From NCBI GenBank assembly GCA_031430855.1, contig JANPCG010000013.1, forward strand, positions 99,781-163,780: DNA of 64,000 nt. Direction: 5' to 3'. Of this stretch, positions 1 to 47,363 are shown piece by piece. Position numbers and translations under genes: made by a program. Under the pieces are notes generated by a model, which worked only from the letters and a program-made list of their open reading frames with translations, did not search any database and was not told the DNA's origin. The stretch is from Candidatus Kaiserbacteria bacterium (GTDB taxonomy: Bacteria; Patescibacteriota; Minisyncoccia; Phycocordibacterales; UBA918). Every line of letters starts with the position of its first letter. Positions within the stretch are counted from its first letter, which is position 1.

Positions 1-208
1 AGGATTGTTCTACAACTGAATATAAATGACCTAACCCCTAAAGTCTTGCTTTGGGATATGGTCGAAAATCCTAACGAAAATACTGAACTCCGTGTTCAGC
101 TACTTTTCGTTAGGTCATATCTGGAAACGGGTATGGGGCTTTAGGGCTCGGCTGGCACGGAGTTCAGTGCGTTTACGTGTCAGCCACACTATTTAAATAA
201 TAAATATT

Positions 209-880
209 ATGAGCGATACACAACAAACAACGCTGGGTGCTACAACTAATAGAGAGAAGTTATTTTGGGGTATTGGACTTCTACTAGTAGCGATTGGGGT
301 ACTAGCAACAAGTCTACTTACAACACTTGCTGGAGTAGCTATACTTCCGATTACTGGCAAGCTCTTACAAAGCAAACTGAACGTGAAAAAACCTATCTTG
401 GTCCAATCTCTAGCTCTTGTAGTGATACTGCTTGTGGGAACATTTACTCTTGATTCAACTAAGTCTACAGAAGTGGCGAGCACACCTACTCCAGTCCCTA
501 CAGTATCAATGGTTTTTGACGTACCACTACTTGTTGGAAAAACAGTAAGCGAATTAGAAACAACATTAGGCACGCCAACTAAGTACACGGTCCCTCCAAC
601 TACTAATGTAGACGGTAGTAAAATTGAGACATGGGAGAAAACTTGGGAGAAAAACGAGCATAGTCTTATGGTCACTTATAAACTTGATACGAATGAAGTT
701 GTTGATTTGTTTTTAAGTGCGGATAGCGATAGTGCATTTGCCAACTTTAAGAGCAAGGACAATATCTTGCTCGTTGGTAATTTGTCAGATGACAGTACTG
801 CTTACGAACTTGAGTTTGTAGAAACTGTGAATATGGCAGATAAAGGCTATACAGGAGTTATTGTTAAGGCAAAAAAGTAG
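209..880 (+). CDS. hypothetical membrane protein (N-terminal TM helices, Thr/Val-rich extracellular part)
   Basis: ORF track; hydrophobic N-terminus GIGLLLVAIGVLATSLL; no recognisable catalytic motif. Confidence 0.4.
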   Translation: MSDTQQTTLGATTNREKLFWGIGLLLVAIGVLATSLLTTLAGVAILPITGKLLQSKLNVKKPILVQSLALVVILLVGTFTLDSTKSTEVASTPTPVPTVSMVFDVPLLVGKTVSELETTLGTPTKYTVPPTTNVDGSKIETWEKTWEKNEHSLMVTYKLDTNEVVDLFLSADSDSAFANFKSKDNILLVGNLSDDSTAYELEFVETVNMADKGYTGVIVKAKK

Positions 881-991
881 TAATTTAACCACATTGGTAT
901 CAAATTTGAAGTGCAAAGCAGGGCACCTGGTCTTAAACCTGCTAAATTAAATTAAGCAAAGAAAGTCTATTTTTGCTATTATGTAAGGGAT

Positions 992-3049
992 ATGAACTTA
1001 GTAGGTAAGACAATCAATGGCTACGTATTTATTGAATTTATCAATGAAGGCGGTTTTGGAGCTGTATACAAAGCCGAAAAAGCTGGGGTTATTTATGCGA
1101 TAAAACTTTTTCGTGAAGCCTATGTGCTGAAAGAATTTCGCCGTGATGGACATAATCGACTAGAACGTGAGATAGAAATAATGCAGAAAGTTTCAGGTCC
1201 AAATCTCGTTAGTTACATTGAACATTTTGAGTATCAAGACAATGGCTCAAATTATTATTTTTTAGTGATGGATTTTGTTGATGGTGAAACACTACGTACT
1301 ATACTTGATAGAGATGGTCAGCTAGATGAAGCGACTTCAAAAAATATTATCCTGCAAGTACTTGATGGTCTTGAAGTTTTGCATAACTTAAAAAATGGTA
1401 ATTCGTCTGGAATCATACATCGTGACCTCAAACCTGAAAATATAATTATGGACAGAAGTGGAGTGTTAAAGATTGTTGATTACGGTATTTCAAAAGTGAT
1501 TGATTTTACATCCATAACTAGTACTGGTGATGTGTTGGGTACGGGTCCGTATATGTCTCCAGAACAAATTACAGATAGTAAAAATATTGATAGACGCAGT
1601 GATTTATATACTGTTGGCATCTTGTACTATGAATTACTTACAAATGAATTTCCGTATGATTTTCAGTCTGCATTTGAATTGGCTGAAAAAATAAAGGTTG
1701 AACGGCCAATGCCACCACGGAGAAAAGTGCCAGGTATTTCAAACGCAACTGAAAATATTATTTTAAGCTTGCTCGAAAAGGAAGCTTATAAACGACCAGT
1801 AGATGTATCTACAATCAGAGCCTCTTTGTTAAGTGGTGAACCTGCAACAACGCTTAAAGAATATGATTTAACACCAAAATTTATTCTTCACCTGAATGAT
1901 GATAAAACTGTTTTAACAGAGTATCTACCTACAATAAGTGATAATTTAACAGTAGTTTTTCCGGCGAATCTATCCTCTGCACAGAAGGGTTTATTGAGTC
2001 TTATTCAAGGGCAACAAACCCGAGTTATAGTTGACCCCGCAACAGTTCGTCTTGCTTACGACACGTATGCTGATACAAAAGGATTGGTTGAGTTACCGTA
2101 TTCGAGAAAAGACTTTCAGGCAATTACCCCGGATTACCTTTCAGATTATAAGGTCCAAAAGGCTTATGTTAAAAGTGTGATTGATACGGAACATAAATTG
2201 GGGGCTGATGTTTTGTTGTCTCCATTTCATTACACTCATAACTCAAATGTCTCATTAGCTACGAGAAATATGGCGTCAGAGTGGCTGGACTTAGACATAA
2301 AACTTTTAATGGAAGCAATTGATTATCGTAATTCAAGTCCAGAACTAAAAGGAAAAGAATTGTATGCGGGTATTTGCTTACATCATACATCTATTAATGA
2401 TGAGCGTGACCGTAAATACATACTAAACACATTTTCTCTGTTTGATGTGGATGGTTACATAGTTTACGTTGATTCGATTGACAAAGAATCTTCAAAATCA
2501 ACTCTATACAGTTATATAAAACTTGTTACGGAATTACAGCAAAGCACTGGTAAGCCAGTCATAGCAGGACGTATGGGTCAATTTGGCTTAGGTTTGTTAT
2601 GTGCAGGCATTACTGGTTTTACATCAGGTACTGCTCGCTTCGAATCGTTCTATGAGGGTTTGTATAAAGAAGATACCGGTCCAGCATATAACATGTATGA
2701 AAGATATTATTATCCCGAGTTACTTTCTTGTATCTCAATTAAGAAAAAAGACCCAACGAGATTTGATAGTATTGCAGAATTCCTTCCCCCATGCGACTGT
2801 CCTTACTGTATTGGTAAGTCCGTTACAGAAATTATTCAGGCAAAGAATAATAAGTTTCATTTTCTGTATAAATATAAACAAGAAGTAAACGCTATCCTTG
2901 CACTGCCTGAACAAAAAAGAATACCTTACTTTTTAAGTCGTATCGAAGTTGCTATTGATAATTACGCCAAGATGTCACCAAAAGTGTTTGGACCATCTGA
3001 TTATAAACACCTACAAAACTGGCAGGAGGTGTTTAGTAAGCTACAATAG
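992..3049 (+). CDS. Ser/Thr protein kinase (N-terminal about 270 aa) fused to a roughly 400 aa unknown C-terminal domain with a CDCPYC (CxCxxC) motif
   Basis: Hanks kinase motifs visible: GGFGAVYKA glycine loop, AIK lysine, HRDLKPENI catalytic loop, DYG (DFG variant), SPE (APE variant); C-terminal domain unassigned. Confidence 0.8.
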   Translation: MNLVGKTINGYVFIEFINEGGFGAVYKAEKAGVIYAIKLFREAYVLKEFRRDGHNRLEREIEIMQKVSGPNLVSYIEHFEYQDNGSNYYFLVMDFVDGETLRTILDRDGQLDEATSKNIILQVLDGLEVLHNLKNGNSSGIIHRDLKPENIIMDRSGVLKIVDYGISKVIDFTSITSTGDVLGTGPYMSPEQITDSKNIDRRSDLYTVGILYYELLTNEFPYDFQSAFELAEKIKVERPMPPRRKVPGISNATENIILSLLEKEAYKRPVDVSTIRASLLSGEPATTLKEYDLTPKFILHLNDDKTVLTEYLPTISDNLTVVFPANLSSAQKGLLSLIQGQQTRVIVDPATVRLAYDTYADTKGLVELPYSRKDFQAITPDYLSDYKVQKAYVKSVIDTEHKLGADVLLSPFHYTHNSNVSLATRNMASEWLDLDIKLLMEAIDYRNSSPELKGKELYAGICLHHTSINDERDRKYILNTFSLFDVDGYIVYVDSIDKESSKSTLYSYIKLVTELQQSTGKPVIAGRMGQFGLGLLCAGITGFTSGTARFESFYEGLYKEDTGPAYNMYERYYYPELLSCISIKKKDPTRFDSIAEFLPPCDCPYCIGKSVTEIIQAKNNKFHFLYKYKQEVNAILALPEQKRIPYFLSRIEVAIDNYAKMSPKVFGPSDYKHLQNWQEVFSKLQ

Positions 3050-3057
3050 TAGTAGTT

Positions 3058-3690
3058 ATGTTTTCATTAGAAAAAGATGTTGTTAAAGTGCTTGATGCAA
3101 ATATCAACCACATCTTTGGTGAAGGTCGTTCCGTATTAGAGTTTTCATGTGGTGTTGGCCGTCCCGATATTATGTTTGGAAGGATGGTAAATAACAATGA
3201 CAGGGAATCAATCGCTGATTACGATTCCATGTTAGTCTTATCAACTTTTTGTGTACGAAAAGGTCAATTAGTTACGGCCGATAGAATACGAGAAAGTACA
3301 AATTTTTCTGGTAAAAAAATTGATGAAATAATCAAGCTTCTTTCAGACCATGAATATATAAAGCAAAGTAGTACGAATAAGTACGTTGTCACTAGAAGAT
3401 ATGAACCACCAGTACAAGATTTTATTTCTATTGAAGTGAAAATGAAAGACTGGAGACAGGGTTATTATCAGGCCGTAAGATATTCAAGTTTCTCGACAAA
3501 AAGTTATTTAGCAATATCGTCTGAATATATTAACAATGTTGATATTGAAGTCTTAAGAAAAGACGGTATTGGACTTATTTCCGTAGGTTCTAGTACTGCA
3601 AAGATTCTAGTGTTAGCAAAGAAGATAAAGCACAATAACAAAATTGCACATTATTTATCAACTGAGAGATTTAGAGGTTGTCTGCAGTAA
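3058..3690 (+). CDS. hypothetical protein, PD-(D/E)xK nuclease-like (GRPD ... IEVK motif spacing)
   Basis: GRPDIMFG followed about 90 aa later by SIEVKMKDW resembles the PD...(D/E)xK restriction-endonuclease-fold signature; inference only. Confidence 0.35.
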   Translation: MFSLEKDVVKVLDANINHIFGEGRSVLEFSCGVGRPDIMFGRMVNNNDRESIADYDSMLVLSTFCVRKGQLVTADRIRESTNFSGKKIDEIIKLLSDHEYIKQSSTNKYVVTRRYEPPVQDFISIEVKMKDWRQGYYQAVRYSSFSTKSYLAISSEYINNVDIEVLRKDGIGLISVGSSTAKILVLAKKIKHNNKIAHYLSTERFRGCLQ

Positions 3691-3798
3691 TTTAACTCAA
3701 TAAGGGCTACTGTTATTGCCTAAAACTTCACATGGGCTTGGTAGGGTGACCTAATATTATTTGATGAAAAGATTATCGTTTCAGACTATAATCAAGGC

Positions 3799-4458
3799 GT
3801 GGTAAACGTCTACACTGAATATTTCAAAGAACTCATGGACTTCCTGTATGGGATAGTAATAAGCTTGCCTGATTCGATGGGGGTAACTAACATATCTTAC
3901 TCATTTGATGATTATCGCACTAGTATTGGACAACAGGTCCAGCTTTTGGAATCGCTTGAGAAAGTTGGCGTCCTGAAAATTATTTATAAAGTGCCTTTAC
4001 CGCCAGTCGTAAAATTCACACTTAATACAAGTGGGAATAGGTATTCAGCCTCTGGTTGTCTGGGTTATGAATTGGAGATAAATAAGGATGAATTTTTGCG
4101 ATACAGGGCCAATAGTAGTTTGTTGAGCGTAAATAATGATGAACACCAGTATGAATTGCCACATTTGTCTGATAACGGGCGAATTCTTTTTGTTAATGGT
4201 GATGAAATTATTTTAAGTAAGCACGGGGAGATGACTAAAAGTTATGCGATAGCAAATTTAATTTTTAATAATGACGACTACCAATGTACAAACGAAGCAT
4301 TAGTTGATATGGCTGGAAGTGCTAAAGATAGAAAGAGCCCGAAGTCTTTTGTAGATAATGCCGTGAAGTATTTTAACCGCAAAGTTAATATACCGAATTT
4401 TGTTAGACAATCTGAGGGAATAATTTTATTGAATGAGAAATACACAAATTTTCGGTAA
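3799..4458 (+). CDS. hypothetical protein
   Basis: ORF track, AT-rich island codon usage, no motif recognised. Confidence 0.4.
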   Translation: MVNVYTEYFKELMDFLYGIVISLPDSMGVTNISYSFDDYRTSIGQQVQLLESLEKVGVLKIIYKVPLPPVVKFTLNTSGNRYSASGCLGYELEINKDEFLRYRANSSLLSVNNDEHQYELPHLSDNGRILFVNGDEIILSKHGEMTKSYAIANLIFNNDDYQCTNEALVDMAGSAKDRKSPKSFVDNAVKYFNRKVNIPNFVRQSEGIILLNEKYTNFR

Positions 4459-4507
4459 GATTTAACCATATGTTCAACCTAGTTCGAACATCATAATAAA
4501 TATAGTA

Positions 4508-4531
4508 AACGCACTCGAAAACGAGTGCGTT
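4508..4531. terminator. perfect 10-bp stem hairpin AACGCACTCG-aaaa-CGAGTGCGTT between genes (weak T tract)
   Basis: read directly from sequence; intergenic. Confidence 0.35.
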
Positions 4532-4694
4532 ATGCGTTTAGAAGACAAGCACATTAATCAATTTATTGAGCTGTACTTAAAAAAGTACGGTGTGGTTTTG
4601 GAACGTGCTGAAGCAACGCAAATGGCTATTAGGTTTGCGAGTTGTATTCGTGTGGTCGAATCGAATTCATTTATTAAACAAGAAGAAAATAAGT

Positions 4695-5189
4695 ATGGAC
4701 AATGATGAGGATTCTATTGAGGGTGGCTATGTGATTATGCCACGTAATATAGCCCGTGATAGCCGAAATGGTTTGATGACAAACCCCGAACGGAATTTGT
4801 TGTTATGGATTCGGTTGATAGCTGATGTTCGAGGTGTAAGCCATTGTTCCATGAAAGGACTTGCAGATGAAGCCTTTAACGACAAAGTTTCCAATTCGTA
4901 TATAAATAAAATACTACGTTCATTAAAGAAGAAGAGATACCTTTGGTACCAAGACCGCAATGGTCGCAGAGGTACGTTCGAGATTCATTTACGTGATTGG
5001 TTCTTGAAAGATAAGGTTATTAAGGATATTACAAATTTGTTTGAAAAGGAGTCAGTCAAAGCTCAATCAAAGGCCAGGTGGAATCCTGATGCTAAACCCA
5101 GACCAATTTCTGAGGAAGAGAGTCAGAGGATTGTAGATAGAAGAAAAGCAATTACAGCAAAGCTTTCTATGCATCAAAAGCAACTGTGA
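4695..5189 (+). CDS. hypothetical basic protein (possible DNA-binding or regulatory protein of the mobile element); start moved to the MDNDED methionine
   Basis: ORF 4590..5189; first ATG at 4695; Arg/Lys-rich. Confidence 0.4.
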   Translation: MDNDEDSIEGGYVIMPRNIARDSRNGLMTNPERNLLLWIRLIADVRGVSHCSMKGLADEAFNDKVSNSYINKILRSLKKKRYLWYQDRNGRRGTFEIHLRDWFLKDKVIKDITNLFEKESVKAQSKARWNPDAKPRPISEEESQRIVDRRKAITAKLSMHQKQL

Positions 5190-5273
5190 GTCAGAGCTTG
5201 CTATACAGATACTGAAACAGACACAAAAACTGATACAAAAAACTTACACAGTACTTTAAGAAATTAATCTCAA

Positions 5274-5876
5274 TTGATTTCGGTTATGTCACGAGAACTT
5301 ACAACTTCACGCTTATTATTAGATATTCGAAAGATGTATTTCTTGGAAATGATTCCGAAGAATGGATATAAGACTGGTAGATTTGCATGGTATCAAAACA
5401 ATACTGAATTAGGGTACATAAATTATCAGTCTTCTGTTGGAAGGACATATGCTGGTCTTCAACTGATTTATCAAATTACATACCAAGGGGGTGAGGTTAA
5501 AAACATCAATCAGGAAGTGTTGCTGACGGGTATTGATTGTCATTTTGGGGGTTTCCGTTGGTACTTCAAATGCCCAGGATGTAATGCACGAGTAGCAGTG
5601 CTTTATAGCGGTCAAAATGGCTTCTACTGTAGAAAATGTAACCATCTAGCATACGAAGGTCAAAATGATTCAAAACTGAACAGAGAGGGCATTTTTCGCT
5701 TATGGTCCATTACAGATAAAGAAGAAAAGATGATTGCACGGATAGGGCGTACTTTATACAAAGGTAAGCCTACTAGGAAGTATAAACAGCTTTTGGATAT
5801 ACAAAAAAAGAATGGATTGATAGTGAGAGAAGAAGTACAAAAAGAGTATAATAAAACCAATAATGAAAAATTTTAG
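5274..5876 (+). CDS. hypothetical zinc-ribbon protein (CPGC...CRKC)
   Basis: four Cys in CxxC...CxxC arrangement; overlaps the recombinase start by 14 nt (operon-like). Confidence 0.45.
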   Translation: MISVMSRELTTSRLLLDIRKMYFLEMIPKNGYKTGRFAWYQNNTELGYINYQSSVGRTYAGLQLIYQITYQGGEVKNINQEVLLTGIDCHFGGFRWYFKCPGCNARVAVLYSGQNGFYCRKCNHLAYEGQNDSKLNREGIFRLWSITDKEEKMIARIGRTLYKGKPTRKYKQLLDIQKKNGLIVREEVQKEYNKTNNEKF

Positions 5877-7629
5877 CGACAACAAATACTTCATCTATAT
5901 TCGGAGGTCGCAAGATGCTGAGGACCGTCAAATGGCGAGTCTGGAAGACCAGGAAGCTGAAATGCGAACTGTGGCCGAAAGGTACAATTTAAATGTGGTT
6001 GATGTGATTGGTGAGTCACGGTCCGCCAAACACCCAGGTAGACCTAAGTTTAATGAAATGCTTGCACGCTTGCATGCTGGTGAAGCTAATGGGGTGTTGT
6101 GTTGGAAATTGAATCGACTGTCTCGCAATCCAATAGATGGTGGCCAGATTTCATGGTTGTTACAACAAAAAGTAATTTCTCATATCAGGACCATTGAAAG
6201 AGATTATTTACCAACTGATAACGTCATTATGATGGCGGTTGAACTTGGTATGGCTAATCAGTTTTCAAATGATTTAAGTGTTGATGTTAAGAGAGGTATG
6301 CGACAAAAGGCTGGGCGTGGCTGGAATTCACAAAGCACACTACCTGTTGGTTATAGGCATAACACTGGTTATGAAAAAGACGGTGAAGAGATAGTTTCTA
6401 CTTCTGACCTTCAAATTGTTAAAAAAGTTTTAGGTACTTTTTTAGAAGGTGCACATTCGGTGTCGGATATTCAGCGACTAGGTACTGTCCTTGGGCTTGT
6501 AAACAAGAGGGGTAAACCACATGTCTATAACACGTATCTGAATATGTTGAGATGTCATATGTACTATGGTTACTTCCAGTGGCGAGACAGTGACGGTGTT
6601 GAACAGTGGCATAAGGGAAAACACGAACCAATTATTACTGAAGAACAATTTAATCAAGTTCAGTTAATGCTTGGTAAGCGTGGAAGACCAACAAGAATTA
6701 ATACATACGACTTTGCGTTTCGTGGCCCGCTGTCTTGCGGTGAGTGTGGTTGTGCTGTTACTGCTGAAAGAAAACTACAGTGTATTTGTACTGGGTGTAA
6801 AAGAAAATTTTCGTGCAAAACTGCTAAGGCTTGCCCAGATTGTGCTTTGCAAATAGGTGATATGAAAAAGCCAAGTTTCGTTGATAAAACTTACTATCGT
6901 TGCACTAAGAGAAAGAAGGGATACAAATGTTCTCAAAAATGCATTGAAGAAAGTAAGCTTCATACTGACATTGACGGCATATTGCAAGATATGGAAATAG
7001 ATAAGGACTTCTATCAATGGGCTAAAATGGCCTTACGTGACGTTCATAGTAGTGAAATTGATGAACAGCGTGAAATCGTAAAAAGAACAGCCAAGAAAAG
7101 AGATGAGCTTTTTCAGCGATTGAATAACTTGGTCCTGATGCGTGCTGACGGTGAGATTTCGTCTGACCAACTTAAAGACATGAAAGGTAAAGCGGAAAGG
7201 GAATTACATGAAGTCGAAAAAGAGTATCGAGCACTGGACCAGCGAGCTTTGCACTGGGTAGATATTGCTGATGGCTACCTGACGTTTACTGAGAAAGCTT
7301 GTGACCTATTTAACACAACTACTAATTTGAGTCTCAAGCGTGAGATACTTCAAACCCTTGGTTCGAACCTAGAAATTTTTAATCAAAAGCCAATGTTCGT
7401 AATGGCTAAACCGCTTATTGCATTGAAAAATGTTCATGTGCGTACCTACAAAGAATTAGGTACGTTCGAACCTAAAAAAGCCCTTGATAAACAAGGACTT
7501 TCTAAGGAAAAAGCTATTGCTTTTTCAGTTCTGTGCGCCGGGAGGGATTCGAACCTTCGTAGGCTGATGCCAGCAGATTTACAGTCTGCCCTCGTTGACC
7601 GCTTGAGTACCGACGCAAATATAGTGTAG
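5863..7629 (+). CDS. large serine recombinase (resolvase/invertase catalytic domain + recombinase domain + Cys4 zinc ribbon)
   Basis: N-terminal YIRRSQDAEDRQMASLEDQ (catalytic Ser + Q...L..Q) and LNRLSRN motifs; CGECGC...C..C zinc ribbon; 588 aa, typical of large serine recombinases. Confidence 0.8.
   Translation: MKNFSDNKYFIYIRRSQDAEDRQMASLEDQEAEMRTVAERYNLNVVDVIGESRSAKHPGRPKFNEMLARLHAGEANGVLCWKLNRLSRNPIDGGQISWLLQQKVISHIRTIERDYLPTDNVIMMAVELGMANQFSNDLSVDVKRGMRQKAGRGWNSQSTLPVGYRHNTGYEKDGEEIVSTSDLQIVKKVLGTFLEGAHSVSDIQRLGTVLGLVNKRGKPHVYNTYLNMLRCHMYYGYFQWRDSDGVEQWHKGKHEPIITEEQFNQVQLMLGKRGRPTRINTYDFAFRGPLSCGECGCAVTAERKLQCICTGCKRKFSCKTAKACPDCALQIGDMKKPSFVDKTYYRCTKRKKGYKCSQKCIEESKLHTDIDGILQDMEIDKDFYQWAKMALRDVHSSEIDEQREIVKRTAKKRDELFQRLNNLVLMRADGEISSDQLKDMKGKAERELHEVEKEYRALDQRALHWVDIADGYLTFTEKACDLFNTTTNLSLKREILQTLGSNLEIFNQKPMFVMAKPLIALKNVHVRTYKELGTFEPKKALDKQGLSKEKAIAFSVLCAGRDSNLRRLMPADLQSALVDRLSTDANIV
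7534..7616 (-). tRNA. tRNA-Tyr (anticodon GTA) with long variable arm, no encoded CCA
   Basis: manual fold: acceptor GCGTCGG/CCGGCGC, anticodon loop CTGTAAA, variable stem GGC/GCC, T-loop GGTTCGAATCC; lies inside the 3' end of the recombinase ORF on the opposite strand. Confidence 0.8.
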
Positions 7630-7710
7630 CCAGGGAGAGCTACGTAGCGTACAAATTATCACAGTTTCCCTGATTTAGAAAGGGGTAGGTATGGTAAGCT
7701 TAGGGGTAAT

Positions 7711-8874
7711 ATGATGCGTCTGTTTGTCTTTTTTTGTCTCGTGGGTGTTTTTGCTATCGCACCTCTCATGGTCGATGCGCGTGGCCTCGTGCCGTGTGGT
7801 GGGCCGGGAGAACCTGCCTGTCAATCATGTCATGTGGTTGCGCTCACTAATAATATTATTGGGTGGCTCGTATTGATCCTTGGGACTATTGCGGCAATTG
7901 TTATTGTTTACGCGGGAGTAAAGCTGGTAACCTCAGCGGGTAATCAGGGAGCCATGGAGGATGCCAAGAGTTTGATTACTAATATCATAATCGGGTACGT
8001 GATTGTGTTGGCGGGGTGGCTCATTATTGACTACGTGATGAAGGTGCTCGTTGATGAGGGGAGTTTTGGTGTCTGGAATCAGCTTGAATGTACCACGCAG
8101 GTGGTGCCAGGAGCGGCGGATATTAATACTATCGATTTTAGTTTGCCGTATGCGCCGCTTGATGCTGACTTGGGTAGTCTCCAAGGGTGGGTGCCGTCTG
8201 GTACGACAGCGACCGGTGGTCCGGGTGGAACAACGGCTCCGGGTTCGTATAGTTCGGCGTGTCGCCTCTTGCCTAATCCTCCGGGAGTCAGGGAATACGA
8301 TTGTAGTGCGCAGCAGACACAATGCAGAAGCGCCGGAGGGACGCCGTCACTCAATACTGATGGTTCTACGGTCATGTGTGCACCGGCGCAGATTACTGGT
8401 GGAGGAGGCGGCTCGTGTACGGTCGTTACTAATCCATCAAATGCGTGCCATCCAAGCCGATTGACGTGTTTTCCTGATCGAAACCTTGCGTCTGAAATTT
8501 GTAATCTTGAGAGTGGCGGAGGAGATACTACAAGAATGTCTGGTTCTGATTTGTGTCGGGATGGTCGGTCATTTTCAGTTGGGCTATGGCAAATAAATAT
8601 TTTAGCCAACCGAGCACTTATTCCTGGCTGCACGGGAACCTTCTTTACTTCAGACAATAATGGTCGGAGTGAAGGTAGTTGTATCCAGTATCGGACTAAC
8701 AGTCGTGGTGTTCGGTATTGTCAGTATCGATCGTGTGAGATCACTAATGTGGCTACATATAACCGTTGTGTCTCAAATGCGCGAATTCCTGCAAACAATA
8801 CTACGGCTGCCTGTAGTCTCATGCGTTCTCAGGGATGGAATGCCTGGGCTACATCGTATAATTTATGTCGATAA
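7711..8874 (+). CDS. secreted protein: TrbC/VirB2-pilin-like N-terminal domain fused to a Cys-rich lysozyme or lytic-transglycosylase-like C-terminal domain
   Basis: signal peptide; CGGPGEPACQSC; two hydrophobic helices (IIGWLVLILGTIAAIVIVYAGVKLV, IIGYVIVLAGWLIIDYVM) as in TrbC/VirB2; C-terminus has ES...GLWQIN...TYN resembling GH23 (E-S, GLMQ, AYN) motifs. Confidence 0.55.
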   Translation: MMRLFVFFCLVGVFAIAPLMVDARGLVPCGGPGEPACQSCHVVALTNNIIGWLVLILGTIAAIVIVYAGVKLVTSAGNQGAMEDAKSLITNIIIGYVIVLAGWLIIDYVMKVLVDEGSFGVWNQLECTTQVVPGAADINTIDFSLPYAPLDADLGSLQGWVPSGTTATGGPGGTTAPGSYSSACRLLPNPPGVREYDCSAQQTQCRSAGGTPSLNTDGSTVMCAPAQITGGGGGSCTVVTNPSNACHPSRLTCFPDRNLASEICNLESGGGDTTRMSGSDLCRDGRSFSVGLWQINILANRALIPGCTGTFFTSDNNGRSEGSCIQYRTNSRGVRYCQYRSCEITNVATYNRCVSNARIPANNTTAACSLMRSQGWNAWATSYNLCR

Positions 8875-8877
8875 TAT

Positions 8878-9402
8878 ATGTTTTTTAAAATACTATTTAT
8901 GTTGTTTGCAGCGGGGAGTGTCGTTTTTGGTGTCTGGTACGTCATGATATATAGTCCGCTGCAAGTTGTTGATACTACGCCGAGTGGTCAAACAGGGATA
9001 GATTTCCCGACTCTGAATACAAATGAAATACCGGAAATTGTTATCAATCATTCACCAAACACTATCGCCACCAGTAAAGATGTTTCCATTTCAGACACAC
9101 CACTTATTCTTCATCGAGATGTAAAAGAGATTGCGCCAGATTTTTATCAAATGAGCGGAGATACTGGTCAATATGAAGTAAGTTATAGTCGACCAAGTGG
9201 TAGTGTAACGATTACTCTTTATGGAGAAGATACGAAAAAATCCCGTGCGAATGCTGAAGCCTACATACTCAAAACGTTGCCGTATACGGAAGATGAGTGG
9301 TGTGGGTTTGTGGTGACGGTAATAACGAATCAGTTTGAAAACCCGACCTGGGCCGGGCAAAATCTAGGTCTGAGTTTCTGTCCGGGTTCGATAGCTCTCT
9401 AA
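8878..9402 (+). CDS. membrane-anchored hypothetical protein (candidate immunity or partner protein)
   Basis: single N-terminal TM helix then soluble domain; sits between the two TrbC-like hydrolase genes. Confidence 0.45.
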   Translation: MFFKILFMLFAAGSVVFGVWYVMIYSPLQVVDTTPSGQTGIDFPTLNTNEIPEIVINHSPNTIATSKDVSISDTPLILHRDVKEIAPDFYQMSGDTGQYEVSYSRPSGSVTITLYGEDTKKSRANAEAYILKTLPYTEDEWCGFVVTVITNQFENPTWAGQNLGLSFCPGSIAL

Positions 9403-10371
9403 ATGAAAAAAATTCTCGTCATTGCTTTGCCACTTTTCGTTCTCGGGCTCTTTTTTGTTCCAGAAATTAATACCCTAGAAGCACAGGGTATTGCACAGTT
9501 AGCACAATGTTCGGGTAATGATTGTACCTCGTGTAATTTAGTTCACCTTGGTAATGGACTTATTCAATGGTTGATCGGAATTCTCTTTATAATCTTTGCC
9601 ATTTTGACGGTCGTTGCAGGGGTGCGTTTAGTAATTTCAGGCGGCAGTACTCAGGCGCTCGATAGCGCCAAAGAATTGTTTAAAAATGCCTTCATTGGAT
9701 TTGTGATTGTCCTCGCGTCCTGGCTTATTGTTGATACCATTATGCGCGTACTGCTCGGTAATGGTGGAAGGTTGGGTTCGTCAGGTGAAGTGTCGGGTTG
9801 GTTATTTTGGTCAGAGGTTGAGTGTCAGACGGTGCGTGATGCAACGCGAGCGGAAATTCGAACGGTTGAATTCGATTTACCAGAAGCCTTAATTGATCAA
9901 GGTGGTGGTACGGCTGGGCAGATTACAATCTCAACACCTTCGGGACCGCAAGTTGTTAACGTTTCCCCTTGTGATACATCAACTTTAACTACCATTAACT
10001 TTTTGGGTGGTAGTGTGACGCTCAATCGGCAGTTTGCAGCAAGTGCGGCCCGGATTGACGCAGCTTGGAGAGCCCGAGGAGGAAATAGTTTCTATCGAGT
10101 GACATCAATTGGTGGTTATGCATGCCGAAATGTGGCCGGTACAAATAGACGGTCCAATCATGCGTATGGTTTGGCGATTGATATTAATCCAGCGCAAAAT
10201 CCACACACCTTTCCTGGTGATTCTAATTACGGACAAACGAATATGCCACCCGCCTTTCGTCAGATCTTTTTGAATGAAGGGTGGGGCTGGGGAGGGAACT
10301 GGAACTCTTCAAAAGACACGATGCACTTTAGTAAAGCGACGGGAGAGGGTGGTAATATGAGAGGAAATTAA
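9403..10371 (+). CDS. secreted protein: TrbC/VirB2-like N-terminal domain fused to LAS/M15-family metallopeptidase (D-Ala-D-Ala carboxypeptidase or endolysin-type) domain
   Basis: N-domain about 60 percent identical to the two paralogs (CSGNDCTSCNLVHL..., GVRLVISGG...IGFVIVLASWLIVDTIMR); C-domain SNHAYGLAIDINP ... DTMHFS matches the SxHxxGxAxD...H zinc-peptidase signature. Confidence 0.65.
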   Translation: MKKILVIALPLFVLGLFFVPEINTLEAQGIAQLAQCSGNDCTSCNLVHLGNGLIQWLIGILFIIFAILTVVAGVRLVISGGSTQALDSAKELFKNAFIGFVIVLASWLIVDTIMRVLLGNGGRLGSSGEVSGWLFWSEVECQTVRDATRAEIRTVEFDLPEALIDQGGGTAGQITISTPSGPQVVNVSPCDTSTLTTINFLGGSVTLNRQFAASAARIDAAWRARGGNSFYRVTSIGGYACRNVAGTNRRSNHAYGLAIDINPAQNPHTFPGDSNYGQTNMPPAFRQIFLNEGWGWGGNWNSSKDTMHFSKATGEGGNMRGN

Positions 10372-10373
10372 GT

Positions 10374-10973
10374 ATGAAACCACGAATCATTCTCGGTATG
10401 CTGGTGTTGTTACTCACACTAATTGTTTGCGTTTGGTATTTTACTAAAGGTACTTCTGATGAAGTTCCGGGTAGGGTGACTGACTTTTCAGCCATTGGTG
10501 TACCAACGACTGCTGAAGATACTTCGTTTACAAGCTTATTGAAACAACAGCCTGATGAAACACAACAGAAGGTGCTCGATAATATATATCTAGACGAATA
10601 TTATCTCTATCCGTGTAATATAACTAATCCACCAACTGATGTGGTAGTTTTGGTCGCTCAGTATAAACCAAATAGTGCTGGCTTAAATACCTTTCAAACG
10701 GCACAATCTGCCGTAAAGACTTTTGAAGATGACATATACCCTAATTGGGGACATCTGATTTTTAAAGATTCCTTTAATGCAGCACTGTCCGTGCGGAATT
10801 TTAGTGAAAAAGGAGTGAGTGATCCTGAGCTTGTGACCGAGACCTATCGGGTTGGATTATCGCCTGATGGGCAAACGCAGGTGTATTATGGGTGGGTACT
10901 CAATTATATTGTCGTAGCGTCTTCGAAAGACTGTTTAATTGAAACTATGAAACAAGTTTATTCCATTCATTAG
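10374..10973 (+). CDS. membrane-anchored hypothetical protein (candidate immunity or partner protein)
   Basis: N-terminal TM helix ILGMLVLLLTLIVCVWYF, soluble remainder; follows the M15 fusion gene with a 2 nt gap. Confidence 0.45.
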   Translation: MKPRIILGMLVLLLTLIVCVWYFTKGTSDEVPGRVTDFSAIGVPTTAEDTSFTSLLKQQPDETQQKVLDNIYLDEYYLYPCNITNPPTDVVVLVAQYKPNSAGLNTFQTAQSAVKTFEDDIYPNWGHLIFKDSFNAALSVRNFSEKGVSDPELVTETYRVGLSPDGQTQVYYGWVLNYIVVASSKDCLIETMKQVYSIH

Positions 10974-10993
10974 CGCTCGATAATTGTACCCAT

Positions 10994-12106
10994 ATGAAAT
11001 ACCTCCCCATCATTTTATTTATCACATTTTCATTCGGCTTTATGTTTGTGCCTGAGACTGGTGTCGCACAAGCCCCGGGTTTGGTGCAGCTCGCACAGTG
11101 TACCGGTAATGATTGTACGGCGTGTAATTTAGTTCATTTAGCGAACGGTATCATTCGGTGGGTGATTGGTATTCTCTTTGTGATATTTGCGGTCTTGGTG
11201 GCGATTGCGGGAGTGCGATTGGTGATTTCGGGGGGTAATAGCCGGGCTTTGGATGAAGCCAAAGAAACGTTTATCAATGCCATTATTGGATTTATCATTG
11301 TTCTCTCTGCGTGGCTTATCATTGATACCGTGATGCGTACCTTGGTCGGCAATGAGGGACGTTTGGGATCGACTGGTTCGGTGTCTGGGTGGCTATTTTG
11401 GTCGGAGGTTGAGTGTCAGACGGTGAGAAATGCTACTGCGGCTGAAATCAGAACTATTCAGTTTGAACTCGCTACAGCTGAGTTTTGGCCTGGTGATCCG
11501 GGTGGAGCGTTTGGAACATCAGAGGTGGTATCAGTTACATCGTGTGCCGCTACTCCGGCTGGTAACATAAATTGTACAGCGCTCGAGAGTGCGTGTCGTG
11601 CTGCTGGCAACTCGCCAATAGTCGACAGAACTAATCCAGTCGACTATCGCGTTAATTGTGTCAGTGTTTCCGATACTCCAGCAGCTCCAGTAAGCGGCTC
11701 TGGTTCGACCGGATGTACCGGAGGGGCGTGTGTGCCGCTGACGATACCGTGTAGTGCATCTGGTTGTACGATTGCGAGAGATATGGTGTCGCGGTTAGCT
11801 GGTATGCATTCTGCGGCTGGGGTTTCTGGTGCGCGAGTGACCGAAGCGATGCCGCCGAGTCGACAACATAGAAGTGCCTGTCACCAAAATGGAACCTGTA
11901 TCGATTATAGTAAAGCGGGTGGTATGAGTGGTGGAGAGGTAGCCCGTGTGATTTCCGCAGCGTCGCGTAACGGATTACGAGCGGTATACGAAGTGCAAAC
12001 ACAGACGCAAAAAAATGCTTTGGTAGCTGCTGGTGCCCCCGCTGGAAATATCACTGTGCTTGGTAATTGGATTAGTGCCCCACACTTTTCAATTTACGGG
12101 AGTTAG
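10994..12106 (+). CDS. secreted protein: TrbC/VirB2-like N-terminal domain fused to a Cys-rich, divergent M15-like peptidase domain
   Basis: N-domain nearly identical in pattern to 9403..10371; C-terminal RSACHQNGTCID ... SAPHFS mirrors the H..G...D ... HF pattern of the neighbouring M15 domain. Confidence 0.5.
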   Translation: MKYLPIILFITFSFGFMFVPETGVAQAPGLVQLAQCTGNDCTACNLVHLANGIIRWVIGILFVIFAVLVAIAGVRLVISGGNSRALDEAKETFINAIIGFIIVLSAWLIIDTVMRTLVGNEGRLGSTGSVSGWLFWSEVECQTVRNATAAEIRTIQFELATAEFWPGDPGGAFGTSEVVSVTSCAATPAGNINCTALESACRAAGNSPIVDRTNPVDYRVNCVSVSDTPAAPVSGSGSTGCTGGACVPLTIPCSASGCTIARDMVSRLAGMHSAAGVSGARVTEAMPPSRQHRSACHQNGTCIDYSKAGGMSGGEVARVISAASRNGLRAVYEVQTQTQKNALVAAGAPAGNITVLGNWISAPHFSIYGS

Positions 12107-35124: not shown

Positions 35125-35195
35125 TGCCGATTCGTCTAATGGTAGGACTCTGGTTTCTGGTACCAGCTATTGGGGTTCGAGTCCCTGATCGGCAG
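35125..35195 (+). tRNA. tRNA-Gln (anticodon CTG), U1-A72 pair
   Basis: manual fold: acceptor TGCCGAT/ATCGGCA, anticodon arm CTGGT-TTCTGGT-ACCAG, T-loop TTCGAGT; immediately precedes the GC drop. Confidence 0.75.
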
Positions 35196-35269
35196 CTTCT
35201 TATTTTAACTATATTTTCAATAAAATTGGTTCGAGTCAAAGATGCAAATTGGTCTGGTATACTTTTTGT

Positions 35270-36193
35270 ATGATAGATACTGATTTTCAAGAAAGATTAA
35301 TCGCACATTTAGAAAGAGAGTCCAATTTAATAATTGTATCAACTCAACTTTCTCCTCAAGGAATGTCTAGTTCTGTTTTCTTTATTAAAACAGCACAAGG
35401 TAAAGAATATGCAGTAAAATATGGTGTTGACGCTATGAAAGATATCCCTGCTCTTAATTTGCTTTCGAGGGAACAGGTTAGCATCTCTGTACCGTCAGTG
35501 CTTTGCTCGTTTCGTTTTGAAGAGACATCTGTAATCGTATTGGAAAAAATACAGTTTCCACTATTGGAAACGGTTGCTATGGAAGAAACACCAAAATACA
35601 TTCCTTCAATAATAAAAAATTTGAGAAAGCTACACAGAATAAAATCTATATCTCCAGGATTACTTAACGAACCAGACAGTCAGATGACATGGAAGGAAAT
35701 AATACTTGATATTTTTGAGGGTAATGCATTTAATTGGCAAGAGATTTCGCAGAGGGAAGTAATAAATACTGATTTGATAACAGTATCAGTAGAGAAAGTG
35801 ATCAAGAAAATAAATGACACTGAATTTCCGGTTGGAGAATATTCACTTTTACATACGGACTTTAATCAAAGAAATCTATTTGTGAATCAAGAGAATTATG
35901 AGATAGCAGGAATAATTGATTGGGAAGATGCGATGTATGGAGATCCAATTTATGACTTTGCAAGAGTGCGTATGTATTTATGGCACTTTAATATTGGGAA
36001 TCAGGCAATCAAAAAATACTACGAACTAATGGACTTCACCCCTCATCAAAAAGAGCTTGAGGATTTATACTGGCTTACTCGTGTAATTCAATATATCGGT
36101 TGGTATTCAGAAGAATTAAATGAATTTACTAGAGGGAGGATTAACCTTCATCAAGATTATCTACAATCATACGATTGGTCAAAAAAGTTCTAA
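35270..36193 (+). CDS. aminoglycoside/choline-kinase-like phosphotransferase (APH family)
   Basis: HTDFNQRNLF (HxDxxxxN catalytic loop) and IIDWEDAMYGDPIYDFA (IDWE...D) motifs. Confidence 0.7.
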   Translation: MIDTDFQERLIAHLERESNLIIVSTQLSPQGMSSSVFFIKTAQGKEYAVKYGVDAMKDIPALNLLSREQVSISVPSVLCSFRFEETSVIVLEKIQFPLLETVAMEETPKYIPSIIKNLRKLHRIKSISPGLLNEPDSQMTWKEIILDIFEGNAFNWQEISQREVINTDLITVSVEKVIKKINDTEFPVGEYSLLHTDFNQRNLFVNQENYEIAGIIDWEDAMYGDPIYDFARVRMYLWHFNIGNQAIKKYYELMDFTPHQKELEDLYWLTRVIQYIGWYSEELNEFTRGRINLHQDYLQSYDWSKKF

Positions 36194-36543
36194 TGGTGCG
36201 AATAGTCATAAGATTCGTCCAGGACCGTCCTAGGCGAAACTTTCCTAGCATATCGCTCAATTACCGTCGAGATGTGAAGATAAAAGTATAAGTGATAGGC
36301 CTTGCAGGTCTCAACCTCCCACAGTTCTAGCTCAAGGAAGCCAGTCCTTAGCATAGATTATCCTGTAAAGGGTGATCTTGTCTTAAGGCTACTTGAAGCA
36401 TCTTTATTGGGAGAGTCCTAGGCAAAGTATGCAAAAGTGCTGGCTGATGACGCCATTTAAAGGTATTATTAAATTGCGCCTATTATTGGACTCTAAACGG
36501 AAGTGTTTGTGTCAAGTGAACTAGTATAGATATTTTTGATAGT

Positions 36544-38049
36544 TTGATAAATTATGGTATGAATGAAAATAAGGATAAGGATTTTATAGATGACAAGATT
36601 ACTTCAAGAGCTGCTGATTTTTCTCAATGGTACCTAGATGTGATTAAAGCTGCTGATTTGGCTGAAAATTCACCCGTGAGAGGTTGTATGGTTATAAAAC
36701 CATACGGATATGCTATTTGGGAAAATATACAAAAGATTTTGGATAAAGAATTTAAAGATAAGGGAACAGAAAATGCCTACTTTCCTTTATTAATACCAAA
36801 AAGTTTTTTAGAAAAGGAAGCAGTACACGTTAATGGTTTCGCAAAAGAGTGTGCGGTTGTTACACACCATAGACTAGAAGAAAAGGATGGTAAATTAATT
36901 CCAGCAGGTGAATTGGAAGAGCCTTTAATAATTCGTCCTACATCTGAGACAATTATTTACGATGCTTTTTCAAGGTGGATAAATTCATATCGCGACTTAC
37001 CTCTACTAATAAATCAATGGTCAAACGTTTTTAGATGGGAAATGAGAACACGACCTTTTTTACGCACATCCGAATTTTTATGGCAAGAAGGGCATACTGC
37101 ACACTCCTCGAAAGAGGAGGCTGATAAAAAAACTCTAGAAATGTTAGAGGTATATCGAATGCTTGCAGAGGATTATCTTGCTATTTCGCTCGTCTTAGGA
37201 AGAAAAACTGAAAGTGAGAAGTTTGCGGGCGCAGACTACACCACCACGATTGAGGCAATGATGCAAGATGGTAAAGCTCTTCAGTCAGGGACGTCTCACA
37301 TGCTTGGTCAAAATTTCTCAAAATCATTTGATGTGTCATATTTGGATGAGAATCAAAAAAAACAATATGTTTGGCAAACAAGCTGGGGTCTATCCACAAG
37401 AATTATCGGTGCGATCATCATGTCTCACTCTGATGATAAGGGACTAGTTCTGCCTCCTAAAATCGCTCCATTTCAAGTGATAATTATTCCAATTTACGCC
37501 ACTGAAGAAGATCGAATAGCTGTTATGGAAAAGGTTTCCGTCATTAAAGACGATTTAAATTCAGCGGGAATTTCATTCAAGCTTGATGATAGAGTTGGTC
37601 GTCCTGGCTTTAAATATTTTGAATGGGAAAGAAAAGGTGTTCCATTAAGATTTGAGATTGGACCAAAAGACGTAGAAAAGGGTTCAGTTGTTGTTGTGGA
37701 AAGATTACATGGTACAAAAGAATTTGTTCGGGATAAAGACATTGTTTCATTTGCCCATTCAAGTTTGAAAGAAATGCAAGACTCGCTTTTTGCAAATTCA
37801 AAAAAGTTCAAGGTTGAAAACACTAGGGAAGTCGCAGATTACGAAGAATTTAAGAAGACGATAAGTAATAAAATTGGTTTTGTCTTTGCATATCTTTGTC
37901 TAGATAAAAACTGTGAAGAGAAAATTAAAGAGGAGACCAAGGCATCTAGTAGGTGTATTCCTTTTGAGGGAGGGGTTGGTAATTCTGGTAAATGTATCTA
38001 CTGCGGCAAAGATACTCCTTATAAAGTGCTGTTTGGGAAGGCTTACTAG
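36544..38049 (+). CDS. proS: prolyl-tRNA synthetase, archaeal/eukaryotic type (class IIa, C-terminal Zn-binding domain)
   Basis: colinear similarity to archaeal-type ProRS (FSQWY, YFPLLIPKSFLEKEA.HV.GF, RPTSETIIY, FRWEMRTRPFLRTSEF, CIYCGK); ORF starts TTG 36544, first ATG 36559. Confidence 0.85.
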   Translation: MINYGMNENKDKDFIDDKITSRAADFSQWYLDVIKAADLAENSPVRGCMVIKPYGYAIWENIQKILDKEFKDKGTENAYFPLLIPKSFLEKEAVHVNGFAKECAVVTHHRLEEKDGKLIPAGELEEPLIIRPTSETIIYDAFSRWINSYRDLPLLINQWSNVFRWEMRTRPFLRTSEFLWQEGHTAHSSKEEADKKTLEMLEVYRMLAEDYLAISLVLGRKTESEKFAGADYTTTIEAMMQDGKALQSGTSHMLGQNFSKSFDVSYLDENQKKQYVWQTSWGLSTRIIGAIIMSHSDDKGLVLPPKIAPFQVIIIPIYATEEDRIAVMEKVSVIKDDLNSAGISFKLDDRVGRPGFKYFEWERKGVPLRFEIGPKDVEKGSVVVVERLHGTKEFVRDKDIVSFAHSSLKEMQDSLFANSKKFKVENTREVADYEEFKKTISNKIGFVFAYLCLDKNCEEKIKEETKASSRCIPFEGGVGNSGKCIYCGKDTPYKVLFGKAY

Positions 38050-38054
38050 AGACT

Positions 38055-41182: not shown

Positions 41183-41185
41183 GGT

Positions 41186-42097: not shown

Positions 42098-42123
42098 TTA
42101 GAGTATTAATTATACAACAAACT

Positions 42124-44353: not shown

Positions 44354-44382
44354 GAGCGGTCAGTAATTAATAAAACTACAAC

Positions 44383-47112: not shown

Positions 47113-47363
47113 GGATTCGTCATATTAAAGACAAGATCCAAAGTGCGATTAATTGTACCAATAATAATCTGCGTAGCTGCGGATAGAATACTATGTCACG
47201 GTATTTATCGTGCCATGGAAGCTCTACAATTTTCCATACAGGTGAGGACTGTCAGCGTTTCGAAAAGTGTGGCGCGGACTTAACACTTGTTGCTATTATA
47301 AAACAACAAACAGTATTGAAGCTGTAGCTTTGAGTCTCTAAAACAGCCACAACTTTACTATAA

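Follow-up and report, generated by a model that had tools for sequence, protein, structure and literature searches.

The left end of the 64,000-nt stretch analyzed here (contig JANPCG010000013.1, from a Candidatus Kaiserbacteria bacterium; hereafter the window) very probably belongs to an 8,745-bp integrative element that a large serine recombinase (LSR) inserted at the 3′ end of a tRNA-Tyr(GTA) gene, with the attachment site of the element (attP) lying within the open reading frame (ORF) of the LSR. The initial annotation of this stretch had proposed an AT-rich integrative element bounded on the right by a serine recombinase gene and tRNA-Tyr. Our analysis confirmed this finding and its interpretation, and added what the annotation had not seen: the LSR ORF overlaps the tRNA gene, and the recombination site is inside the LSR gene.

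For the left flank, we used a contig from a metagenome-assembled genome (NCBI GCA_043735715.1, JAYTDW010000020.1; hereafter L001) that was located via the first complete gene of the window. The look-up of the 588-aa LSR found no exact protein record, and the left extension was made from neighboring genes instead. L001 is 100% identical to window 1-6192 over 6,192 nt and provides 9,792 additional nt leftwards, such that window position 1 corresponds to L001 position 9793. Window 1-7561 is also matched without differences by L002, a Logan contig from another run, which shares 80 nt with L001 from position 8533 on. Furthermore, the same element was found in another sample (L089; 95% nucleotide identity), where the homology begins exactly at L001 position 8586 and stops at window position 7617.

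The left junction (attL, L001 8535-8628) reads ...GGCACCCACAAATGTGGGTGCTCGTTTTTAAAAA GTGC ACAGGCATGCAAGAAGTTAGAACC..., and the right junction (attR, window 7488-7581) reads ...GCTATTGCTTTTTCAGTTCT GTGC GCCGGGAGGGATTCGAACC.... At an unoccupied host site (attB) on the related contig L151, the sequence is ...GGCACCCACATAAGTGGATGCTCGTTTTTAAAAA GTGC GCCGGGAGGGATTCGAACC..., with the left side formed by the terminator and AAAAA. The left half of attL and the right half of attR both agree with L151, and the attB reconstructed from these two halves matches it at 88 of 94 positions (L151 being the sole site compared base by base). The element therefore extends from L001 position 8584 (window position -1208) to window position 7536. 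The continuation past the left edge that the initial annotation expected amounts to 1,208 bp only, and the right limit, which it had placed at about 7640, moves to 7536; the tRNA itself is host DNA.

The tetranucleotide GTGC is the only junction sequence common to attL, attR, attB, and the reconstructed attP, and the crossover dinucleotide must therefore fall within it. This core spans the discriminator base and the last acceptor-stem pairs of tRNA-Tyr. Around it, attP contains CAGTTCTGTGCACAGGCATGC (junction ...GCTTTTTCAGTTCTGTGCACAGGCATGCAAGAAGTTAGAACC...) and attB contains TTAAAAAGTGCGCCGGGAGGG (junction ...GGGTGCTCGTTTTTAAAAAGTGCGCCGGGAGGGATTCGAACC...). For the related element in L094, the core common to the sites is 8 nt. 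Two forms of the left attachment site had been anticipated, a direct repeat of the tRNA-Tyr 3′ portion or a short core; the latter guess was correct, and the former was not, as the 22-nt tRNA-Tyr repeat in the vicinity is part of a host unit that unoccupied sites contain as well (see below).

The integration was further borne out by comparison with relatives. A metagenome scan with the 5′ part of tRNA-Tyr returned 75 contigs, and those with a left flank of at least 300 nt (62 contigs) were counted. An LSR gene is present at four of these 62 tRNA-Tyr sites and absent from the other 58. In the LSR-free sites, where read, a hairpin and then a T-rich tract lie directly against the tRNA end and the core. 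An additional class of LSR-free sites with an apparent relic of the LSR 3′ end was dropped, as its number was inflated by short tblastn extensions across ordinary terminator hairpins. The cargo at this site differs among the relatives. An identical LSR protein (P0005) occurs with three cargo sets, one of which includes an AAA_15/AAA_21 ATPase, and L094 carries a type III restriction-modification cargo at the same host site. To the right of this site are T4SS-pilin genes, tRNA-Trp, miaA, tRNA-Leu, parB, relA, and topA. The differences in cargo suggest that the elements have recently moved and exchanged cargo. In addition, the contig L173 (Logan SRR32548939, carrying LSR protein P0042) has a length of 8,418 bp, a 22-nt terminal overlap, an ORF across its ends, and no tRNA. 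It has an intact LSR with a native tail (57% identical to the window LSR) and ten ORFs without Pfam hits. As judged from these sequence features, L173 is apparently the free circular form of a related element.

The G+C content, which the initial annotation had described as lowered from the window start to about 7640, is indeed not uniform: it is 0.369 for the whole element and 0.483 for window 7537-34000, and sliding windows gave 0.33-0.42 over positions 1-7500 and 0.48-0.54 from about 7750 (to 8500). Low G+C content by itself is not diagnostic in this genome, because window 35.2-53.6 kb is also AT-rich (0.354) and carries non-mobile genes, such as those for prolyl-tRNA synthetase and Mur ligase.

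The LSR gene and its attachment site

The last gene of the element encodes, as initially annotated, a 588-aa serine recombinase (window 5863-7629, plus strand) with Pfam Resolvase (4.6e-17) and Recombinase (1.2e-07) domains. The catalytic domain (PF00239) covers residues 10-153, with R14, R15, and S16 invariant in 18 sequences, and the recombinase domain (PF07508) covers residues 184-273 with a score over the curated cutoff. The invariant cysteines of the zinc ribbon are at residues 292, 295, 307, 309, 312, 324, 327, and 347, and PF13408 is precomputed for several homologs. In the AlphaFold model of the homolog P0014, two long helices (376-423 and 429-480) are flanked by beta strands. With its catalytic, recombinase, and zinc-ribbon/coiled-coil domains and its short core, the enzyme is by sequence a large serine recombinase. 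A total of 851 homologs were found at E ≤ 1e-10. We infer that the LSR of this element is currently active.

After integration, the LSR ORF extends in antisense over the whole tRNA-Tyr and stops 13 nt past it. This tRNA gene is complete, as the initial annotation had stated and as ARAGORN and Rfam both call it, and is convergent with the LSR gene. The core sits 31 codons upstream of the stop of the integrated ORF. When the native frame is followed past the core into the sequence right of attL, it reads ...AFSVLC TGMQEVRTAIIESEYCFLPAFAKKEVAFA*, with 29 codons and then a stop, which gives a native protein of 587 aa. The native last 30 codons (CTGMQEVRTAIIESEYCFLPAFAKKEVAFA*) are thus found detached at the other end of the element. 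Since attP is inside the LSR frame, the C-terminus of the enzyme depends on the integration state.

The tail stretch of approximately 75 nt is the only conserved left-end sequence among related elements. Twelve distinct tail copies translate to C(T/A)G(M/L)xEVRT(A/S)IIES(D/E)Y(C/N)FLP(S/A)F.... Nine of these are detached from any LSR gene (two each in L001, L089, and L100, and one each in L090, L094, and L009), and the other three are contiguous with an LSR gene. The detached tails have the same frame end in five of the nine cases, and end within two codons or run on in three others. Many differences among the tail copies look synonymous by eye (uncounted), such as AGA/CGA for Arg, AGT/TCT for Ser, and third positions. 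The detached tail is conserved as protein.

Among the 17 closest LSR homologs (57-97% identity), most end in ...AFSTLCAGxDSNLRR....DLQS...D.S.TDA. This common ending is the antisense translation of the tRNA-Tyr gene, in which CAGRDSN corresponds to TGCGCCGGGAGGGATTCGAA and DLQS to the anticodon loop; others stop right after DSNL or use another frame of the same tRNA. A replacement tail of this type, differing in length and frame, is found in the majority of the Patescibacteria homologs. A contiguous native tail was found in P0014, P0019, P0032, P0038, P0042, and P0057, as well as in most Flavobacteriia-named or Flavobacteriia-like homologs, and the V/I-R-T-x-I motif is nearly invariant in these proteins. 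In the AlphaFold model of the native-form P0014 (mean predicted local distance difference test score, or pLDDT, of 81), the crossover codon lies in the middle of helix 543-565 (pLDDT about 88 at 551-560), and the invariant R560 and T561 are predicted to be in the helix half that is lost on integration.

Linkage to tRNA genes is common in this LSR family. A survey in which one genome per species was scanned kept 80 homologous LSR loci, and a minus-strand tRNA is located at or just past the ORF end in 41 of these. The tRNA types are Asn (29 loci), Gly (four), Tyr (four), His, Gln, and Ile (one each), and a Gly-led tRNA cluster (one), with Tyr in the closest relatives. In 38 of these tRNA-linked loci, the overlap between the LSR ORF and the tRNA is 11 nt or more. 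A search of the 10 kb upstream for direct repeats of the tRNA 3′ end of 12 nt or longer gave none in 39 of the 41 loci, and the other two have bare 12-13-nt matches. This absence of repeats fits a 4-nt core.

Concerning the arrangement of the attachment sites, the left half of attB is the terminator region of tRNA-Tyr. In the element, an A/T-rich palindrome lies directly 3′ of the tRNA end and is part of the left (P) arm of attP; unoccupied sites have a G+C-rich hairpin and a T-run in its place. From its sequence and position, the palindrome may be a candidate replacement terminator for tRNA-Tyr. The right half-sites share the motif (A/G)TT(C/A)GAACC, which is found as ATTCGAACC at +11..19 relative to the core within the tRNA (attB and attR) and as GTT(A/C)GAACC (GTTAGAACC or GTTCGAACC) at +16..24 in the attL/attP copies and in the circular L173. 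The attL counterpart of the window motif is GTTAGAACC, 16-24 nt right of the core. For serine integrases, the zinc-ribbon-domain (ZD) motif is 5 bp nearer to the center in attB than in attP, with 11-19 and 16-24 being the positions for the LI integrase (PMC3783163). The offset observed here matches this published 5-bp shift for the right half-sites.

The sequence TTCGAACC occurs at only three places (four strand matches) in the 64-kb window (7360-7369, 7465-7472, and 7548-7555), all within 196 nt. One copy is the tRNA T-loop, and the other two are in the LSR 3′ coding region at the invariant motifs LGSNLE and FEPKK. These extra copies could be accessory binding sites, or fossils of past tRNA-antisense read-through captured in the gene. 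Four Logan contigs from different runs (L005-L008) all begin at window 7587-7589, in the anticodon stem of tRNA-Tyr. The variable region of the tRNA differs across related contigs (GGCTGATGCC, GGCATAAGCC, and GGCTAATGCC), and these contig starts probably reflect an assembly-graph branch from strain variation in this region and not excision.

Based on these patterns, the LSR very probably inserted the element at the extreme 3′ end of tRNA-Tyr(GTA) by recombining at GTGC. Integration moves 30 native codons to the far end of the element and puts 31 antisense-tRNA codons in their place, and excision would rebuild the native LSR gene. As a tentative extension, for which we would give clearly less than even chances, the C-terminal swap may act as a built-in state sensor, with the free and integrated LSR isoforms differing in activity, directionality, or stability. 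The LSR made from the free circle would have the conserved VRT(A/S)IIES..CFLP helix and tail, and in the integrated form the second half of this helix would be replaced by antisense-tRNA sequence. For example, the native form could be integration-competent (attP x attB) or short-lived, and the integrated form could be silent, or excision-prone together with the 57-aa protein encoded by the element. In this manner, the element would "know" its integration state without a separate regulator.

Alternative explanations and known systems

The presence of a textbook repeat signature raises the question of whether this is a classical tRNA-targeting island of about 8.95 kb, with the crossover in the T-loop and attL being a 22-nt repeat at L001 8400-8421. 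A short-word BLAST search of window 7532-7553 (from the tRNA 3′ end to the T-loop) against L001 identified this exact copy (window position -1392, 1.39 kb beyond the left window edge) and a second copy of 21 nt that has one mismatch (L001 7391-7411). However, each copy is the left arm of a unit of ~145 nt with an inverted right arm (RNA fold -94 kcal/mol, z = -13), and this unit, together with the terminator, is found beside tRNA-Tyr at the unoccupied sites L104, L150, L151, L126, L156, L161, and others. The unit is therefore host DNA and the 22-nt repeat is not the attL of the element; the combination of this repeat and the palindrome as attL was rejected on the same ground. Moreover, L089 has the same element without the unit at the junction, with homology beginning 186 nt further right, the units adjoining tRNA-Leu copy the tRNA-Leu 3′ end instead, and such repeats within 10 kb are missing from 39 of the 41 related loci. 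A classical island is thus very improbable. The idea that the region is a native low-GC host stretch that contains a recombinase by chance, with no insertion, has almost no probability: the second AT-rich stretch of 18 kb in the window does hold housekeeping genes, but relatives have LSR-free sites and other cargo at the same junction, and the attB match described above is nearly complete.

Two further explanations are unlikely but deserve more weight. A prophage, phage satellite, or integrated plasmid, instead of a simple cargo element, may be suggested by the best PHROG match of the LSR (a phage integrase family), the weak similarity of the 164-aa protein to replication initiators (E 1e-3), and the apparently free circle of 8.4 kb assembled for the relative L173. 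Yet Pfam, PHROGs, and NCBIfam revealed no gene for capsid, terminase, tail, lysis, or conjugation functions in the element ORFs (the 336-aa ORF left of the window was not in the Pfam run), the PHROG matches are limited to the kinase, the integrase/invertase, and one weak replication-initiator family, 8.7 kb is too small for a tailed phage, and a scan of viral contigs returned no LSR relative. A slightly smaller chance is given to a fixed, immobile island, in which the LSR was inactivated by the replacement of its C-terminus, in an SSV-like manner, and the region is now plain host DNA. In favor of this, the conserved VRT..II..S motif is missing from the integrated gene, the excised state of this very element was not recovered, and the apparently decayed LSR-less modules that adjoin such elements (L001 7573-8391; L089 and L100) point to in-place decay. 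On the other hand, the LSR has an intact ORF, its catalytic and zinc-ribbon residues do not vary across the 17 close homologs, the identical LSR occurs with different cargo, and most related sites have no LSR. The detached tail also keeps its frame (same end in five of nine), which would hardly be expected unless the reconstituted gene were under selection.

Several observations weigh against our interpretation of an LSR-inserted element with attP in the LSR gene. The circular example L173 has an LSR that is just 57% identical to that of the window, the viral-contig scan had no relative to offer, and no junction read or contig with an excised form or an unoccupied site was found for this exact element in its own population. 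No directionality factor was identified via homology. The left half-sites (P and B) have no convincing dyad symmetry and no ZD motif at the expected distance in a by-eye search, and the terminator scan called neither of the A/T-rich hairpins of the LSR 3′ end, the one in the P arm included. Part of the tail conservation could stem from the constraint of a DNA binding site rather than from protein. The replacement tail extends from 6-7 to 117 residues past the LC anchor in homologs and its frame also varies; it probably has no function of its own. Finally, the LSR genes are intact, on chromosome-sized contigs, and without an adjacent tRNA in the Dokdonia-, Psychroserpens-, and Flavobacteriales-labeled loci, and the Logan/JGI contigs L170 and L171 likewise have an intact LSR on a large contig that is not tRNA-linked. 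For this reason, the attP-in-gene layout is demonstrated only for the Patescibacteria tRNA-linked clade.

Compared with phiC31, Bxb1, A118/LI, SPbeta, and the SCCmec Ccr recombinases, the enzyme has the same domains (resolvase, recombinase, and zinc ribbon with a long coiled coil). The elements of this type also share a very short core, dissimilar attP and attB except for the 5-bp-shifted motif (seen here in the right half-sites), and an integrase located at the edge near attP. In contrast, the target here is a tRNA 3′ end, attP is inside the LSR frame, and the element is just 8.7 kb with no phage or conjugation genes detected. LSR integrases have been described as not known for tRNA targets (PMC7192596), and tRNA is never mentioned in the largest survey, which covers thousands of LSR attachment sites (Durrant et al.; PMC10083194). 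We found no description of an LSR with attP in its own ORF, nor of tRNA-targeting LSRs in Patescibacteria, in a literature coverage that was incomplete, such that a prior description is possible.

The closest parallels come from other enzyme families. The SSV1-type (type I) archaeal integrases target a tRNA gene and have attP within int, which is partitioned on integration and restored on excision. The likeness consists of the attachment site in the integrase ORF, the tRNA target, and the split of the gene on integration. However, the SSV1-type enzymes are tyrosine recombinases of archaeal viruses and plasmids, and their gene is cut into two large non-functional parts, whereas the bacterial serine recombinase described here loses its last 30 codons only, gains a read-through tail, and keeps all recognized domains intact. 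The host context is bacterial and Patescibacteria-like, with T4SS_pilin (PF18895) genes and relatives labeled Candidatus Saccharibacteria. In the integration-dependent immunity of mycobacteriophages, reportedly described by Broussard et al. in 2013, attP is said to be in the 3′ end of the repressor gene and the C-termini to differ by state, which acts as a switch. There, the repressor is split, a tyrosine integrase is used, and the removed tail is a proteolysis tag, whereas here the serine integrase itself is split. The phiRSM-type elements have a small resolvase-like serine recombinase without the recombinase and zinc-ribbon domains and use a tRNA gene 3′ end as attB; they share with our element a serine-family enzyme and this type of target and differ in the small size of the enzyme, and we know of no overlap between attP and the recombinase gene in these elements. 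In comparison to Islander-type islands, the displaced tRNA fragment is absent (only GTGC is duplicated), and no tyrosine-family integrase was matched. Tycheposons are similar in their small size, a site-specific integrase with variable cargo at one tRNA, decayed remnants in adjacent positions, and mostly unoccupied sites. The differences are that tycheposons are flanked by partial tRNA repeats and use tyrosine recombinases in 910 of 937 elements (10.1101/2020.12.28.424599), whereas here no tRNA-fragment repeat was made by the insertion, and the LSR belongs to a different clade, in Patescibacteria.

The new aspect is a clade of LSRs that target tRNA ends and whose gene is remodeled at each integration. 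LSRs are the main enzymes for large DNA insertion, and the control of their direction is an active structural question. A clade with state-dependent C-termini offers a direct handle on the role of this region in directionality. If the state sensor is true, it would be the serine-recombinase counterpart of integration-dependent switches, across Patescibacteria tRNA-linked elements. The target range of LSRs would extend to the 3′ ends of tRNA-Tyr, Asn, Gly, His, Gln, and Ile, a class that large surveys considering protein-coding targets only did not address. To our knowledge, little is known about gene exchange in Patescibacteria, and these elements represent a compact and apparently active vehicle of ~5-9 kb that swaps restriction-modification, ATPase, and kinase genes at one hotspot. 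For annotation, when an LSR ORF extends through a tRNA, it represents a chimeric integration product and not a gene-calling error, and an obvious tRNA-fragment repeat near such an element can be a host feature that leads to a wrong boundary.

Gene content and neighboring sequences

The element has ten ORFs, nine in the window and one (336 aa) left of it in L001, and one RNA (Table 1). The conserved module consists of the 57-aa, 164-aa, and 196-aa Cys-rich proteins and the LSR as the last gene, and the cargo is variable. In this element, the cargo comprises the Ser/Thr kinase fusion protein, three ORFs without an assigned function, and a LOOT RNA.

Table 1. Features of the element and of its right junction in the window.
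Feature	Position	Strand	Basis
In-window part of the integrative element	1-7536		G+C content, L001 left flank, L151 unoccupied site, L089 homology limits
LOOT RNA (Rfam RF03000)	28-149	+	cmscan 81.8 bits vs gathering score 46.4; upstream of the 223-aa and kinase genes
223-aa cargo ORF	209-880	+	ORF list; apparent hydrophobic N-terminal segment by eye
685-aa Ser/Thr kinase cargo protein	992-3049	+	Kinase domain residues 1-280, Pfam Pkinase 2.7e-47; about 400 aa without match
210-aa cargo ORF	3058-3690	+	Weak sub-threshold HTH_micro match only
219-aa ORF (gene callers start at 3835)	3799-4458	+	tblastn 42% identity over 215 aa to L094 7932-8561
57-aa protein (p57)	4532-4705	+	tblastn: recurs upstream of the LSR in L009, L010, L013, L094, L115, L170, L171
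164-aa protein, conserved core module	4695-5189	+	Weak PHROG 428 (replication initiation protein), E 1e-3; homologs in L094, L014
196-aa Cys-rich protein, 3′ end overlaps LSR start	5286-5876	+	Sub-threshold Zn_ribbon_6; 45% identical L094 homolog directly upstream of its LSR
Element-encoded part of the LSR, residues 1-558	5863-7536	+	Pfam domains; PHROG 95 integrase 7.3e-58; 851 homologs; invariant RRS motif and Cys clusters
A/T-rich palindrome GAAAAAGC-TATT-GCTTTTTC	7507-7526		Read from sequence; inside the LSR coding sequence (protein motif EKAIAF)
GTGC common core	7533-7536		Four-way comparison of attB (L151), attL (L001 8580-8583), attR, and reconstructed attP
tRNA-Tyr(GTA), host target; acceptor and T-arm = right (B′) half-site	7533-7616	-	ARAGORN; Rfam 49.4 bits
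Host-encoded replacement tail (AGRDSNLRRLMPADLQSALVDRLSTDANIV), last 31 codons of the integrated LSR	7537-7629	+	Frame from sequence; antisense of tRNA-Tyr
Motif ATTCGAACC, antisense of the tRNA T-loop, 11-19 nt right of the core	7547-7555		Counted on sequence

Among the cargo named in the initial annotation, the kinase gene is clearly present, the small ORFs exist, and the putative Zn-ribbon ORF is there with a weak match. The kinase has PADLOC matches to PD-T4-6 (1.7e-61) and mad6 (2.1e-57), both in the kinase domain only, and scores 113 bits against NCBIfam MAD6, for which the cutoff is 460. No full-length match above the curated thresholds to the PD-T4-6 or MADS defense systems was obtained, and no other MADS component was found. 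Given the apparent cargo exchange at this site, a defense role of the cargo is plausible but would be a conjecture. The 223-aa ORF has no match in Pfam, PADLOC, PHROG, or NCBIfam, and the 219-aa ORF has no family match in Pfam, PHROG, or NCBIfam. No match to Phage_integrase (tyrosine type) was found in the element ORFs scanned with Pfam (the 336-aa ORF was not in this run).

Of all genes, only p57 recurs together with the LSR. In L009, L115, L170, and L171 it lies immediately upstream of the LSR gene, and in L010, L013, and L094 it precedes this gene by about 0.8-1.2 kb; L170 and L171 are non-Patescibacteria contexts. This protein has no Pfam family, and none of its five database relatives is informatively named. 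We propose p57 as a candidate directionality factor or regulator.

The LOOT RNA, for which we know of no assigned function, was also found in the related LSR elements of L089 (2969-3090), L009 (3501-3621), and L010 (8123-8249) but not in L090, L092, and L094. Relative to the window LSR, the identity is 65% for the LSR of L009 and 58% for that of L010, and L089 has the same element. It is possible that this RNA family is linked to mobile elements.

The structured unit that contains the 22-nt repeat is located just downstream of tRNA-Tyr and the terminator in many related genomes. Copies in L001 are at 8392-8536 (window -1400..-1256) and 7391-7528 (window -2401..-2264), with a relic at L001 7300-7345. 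The left arm copies the adjacent tRNA 3′ end, which is mostly 15-22 nt of tRNA-Tyr and is 23 nt of tRNA-Leu(CAA) in L010, and the right arm is complementary to it and frequently carries a hairpin insertion. Between the arms are a hairpin whose UUACA loop is conserved, a CAGUAC linker, and a long variable hairpin. Compensatory changes were observed in 26 of 34 predicted pairs across 19 sequences. The unit has no Rfam match, and an Rfam search of the palindrome region at E ≤ 1 gave LOOT only. A covariance model of the unit matched only loci of the tRNA-Tyr clade and had no match in the window. A TTGTCAAT-like motif about 8 nt upstream of the unit, seen by eye, suggests plus-strand transcription. 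This unit may be an undescribed small RNA.

Next to one copy of the unit is an LSR-less module of 0.8 kb that carries an HD phosphohydrolase gene (L001 7573-8391; window -2219..-1401). Its left end is a detached tail copy, and its right end resembles a decayed LSR 3′ end (modest DNA alignment score of 48). The module borders on the left arm of the unit in exactly the way that the main element borders on the tRNA. Other LSR-less modules bounded on the left by tail copies are in L089 (50-1737) and L100 (1405-3033). These modules range from 0.6 to 1.7 kb, carry the HD phosphohydrolase gene or ORFs of 197 and 270 aa, and occur in tandem, with or without an LSR-bearing element. They look like decayed elements, or possibly cassettes mobilized in trans. 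If they are decayed elements, the 22-nt arm of the host unit would be an additional target for these elements, and specificity would be determined mainly by the right half-site.

To the right of tRNA-Tyr, window 7711-12106 contains a run of genes on the same strand, with at least two T4SS_pilin (PF18895) genes, one of which is fused to Peptidase_M15_4. Gene calls on sister contigs include a third T4SS_pilin gene, and the same block adjoins the site in relatives. Farther to the right, the AT-rich block at 35200-53600 begins right after tRNA-Gln(CTG) (35125-35196) and contains genes for prolyl-tRNA synthetase, Mur ligase, ATP-grasp, beta-lactamase-fold, and APH-type kinase proteins, as well as several ORFs without a named function. 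It ends in a 341-aa reverse transcriptase (RVT_1, 3.5e-13; 53640-54665), where the G+C content is back to 0.51.

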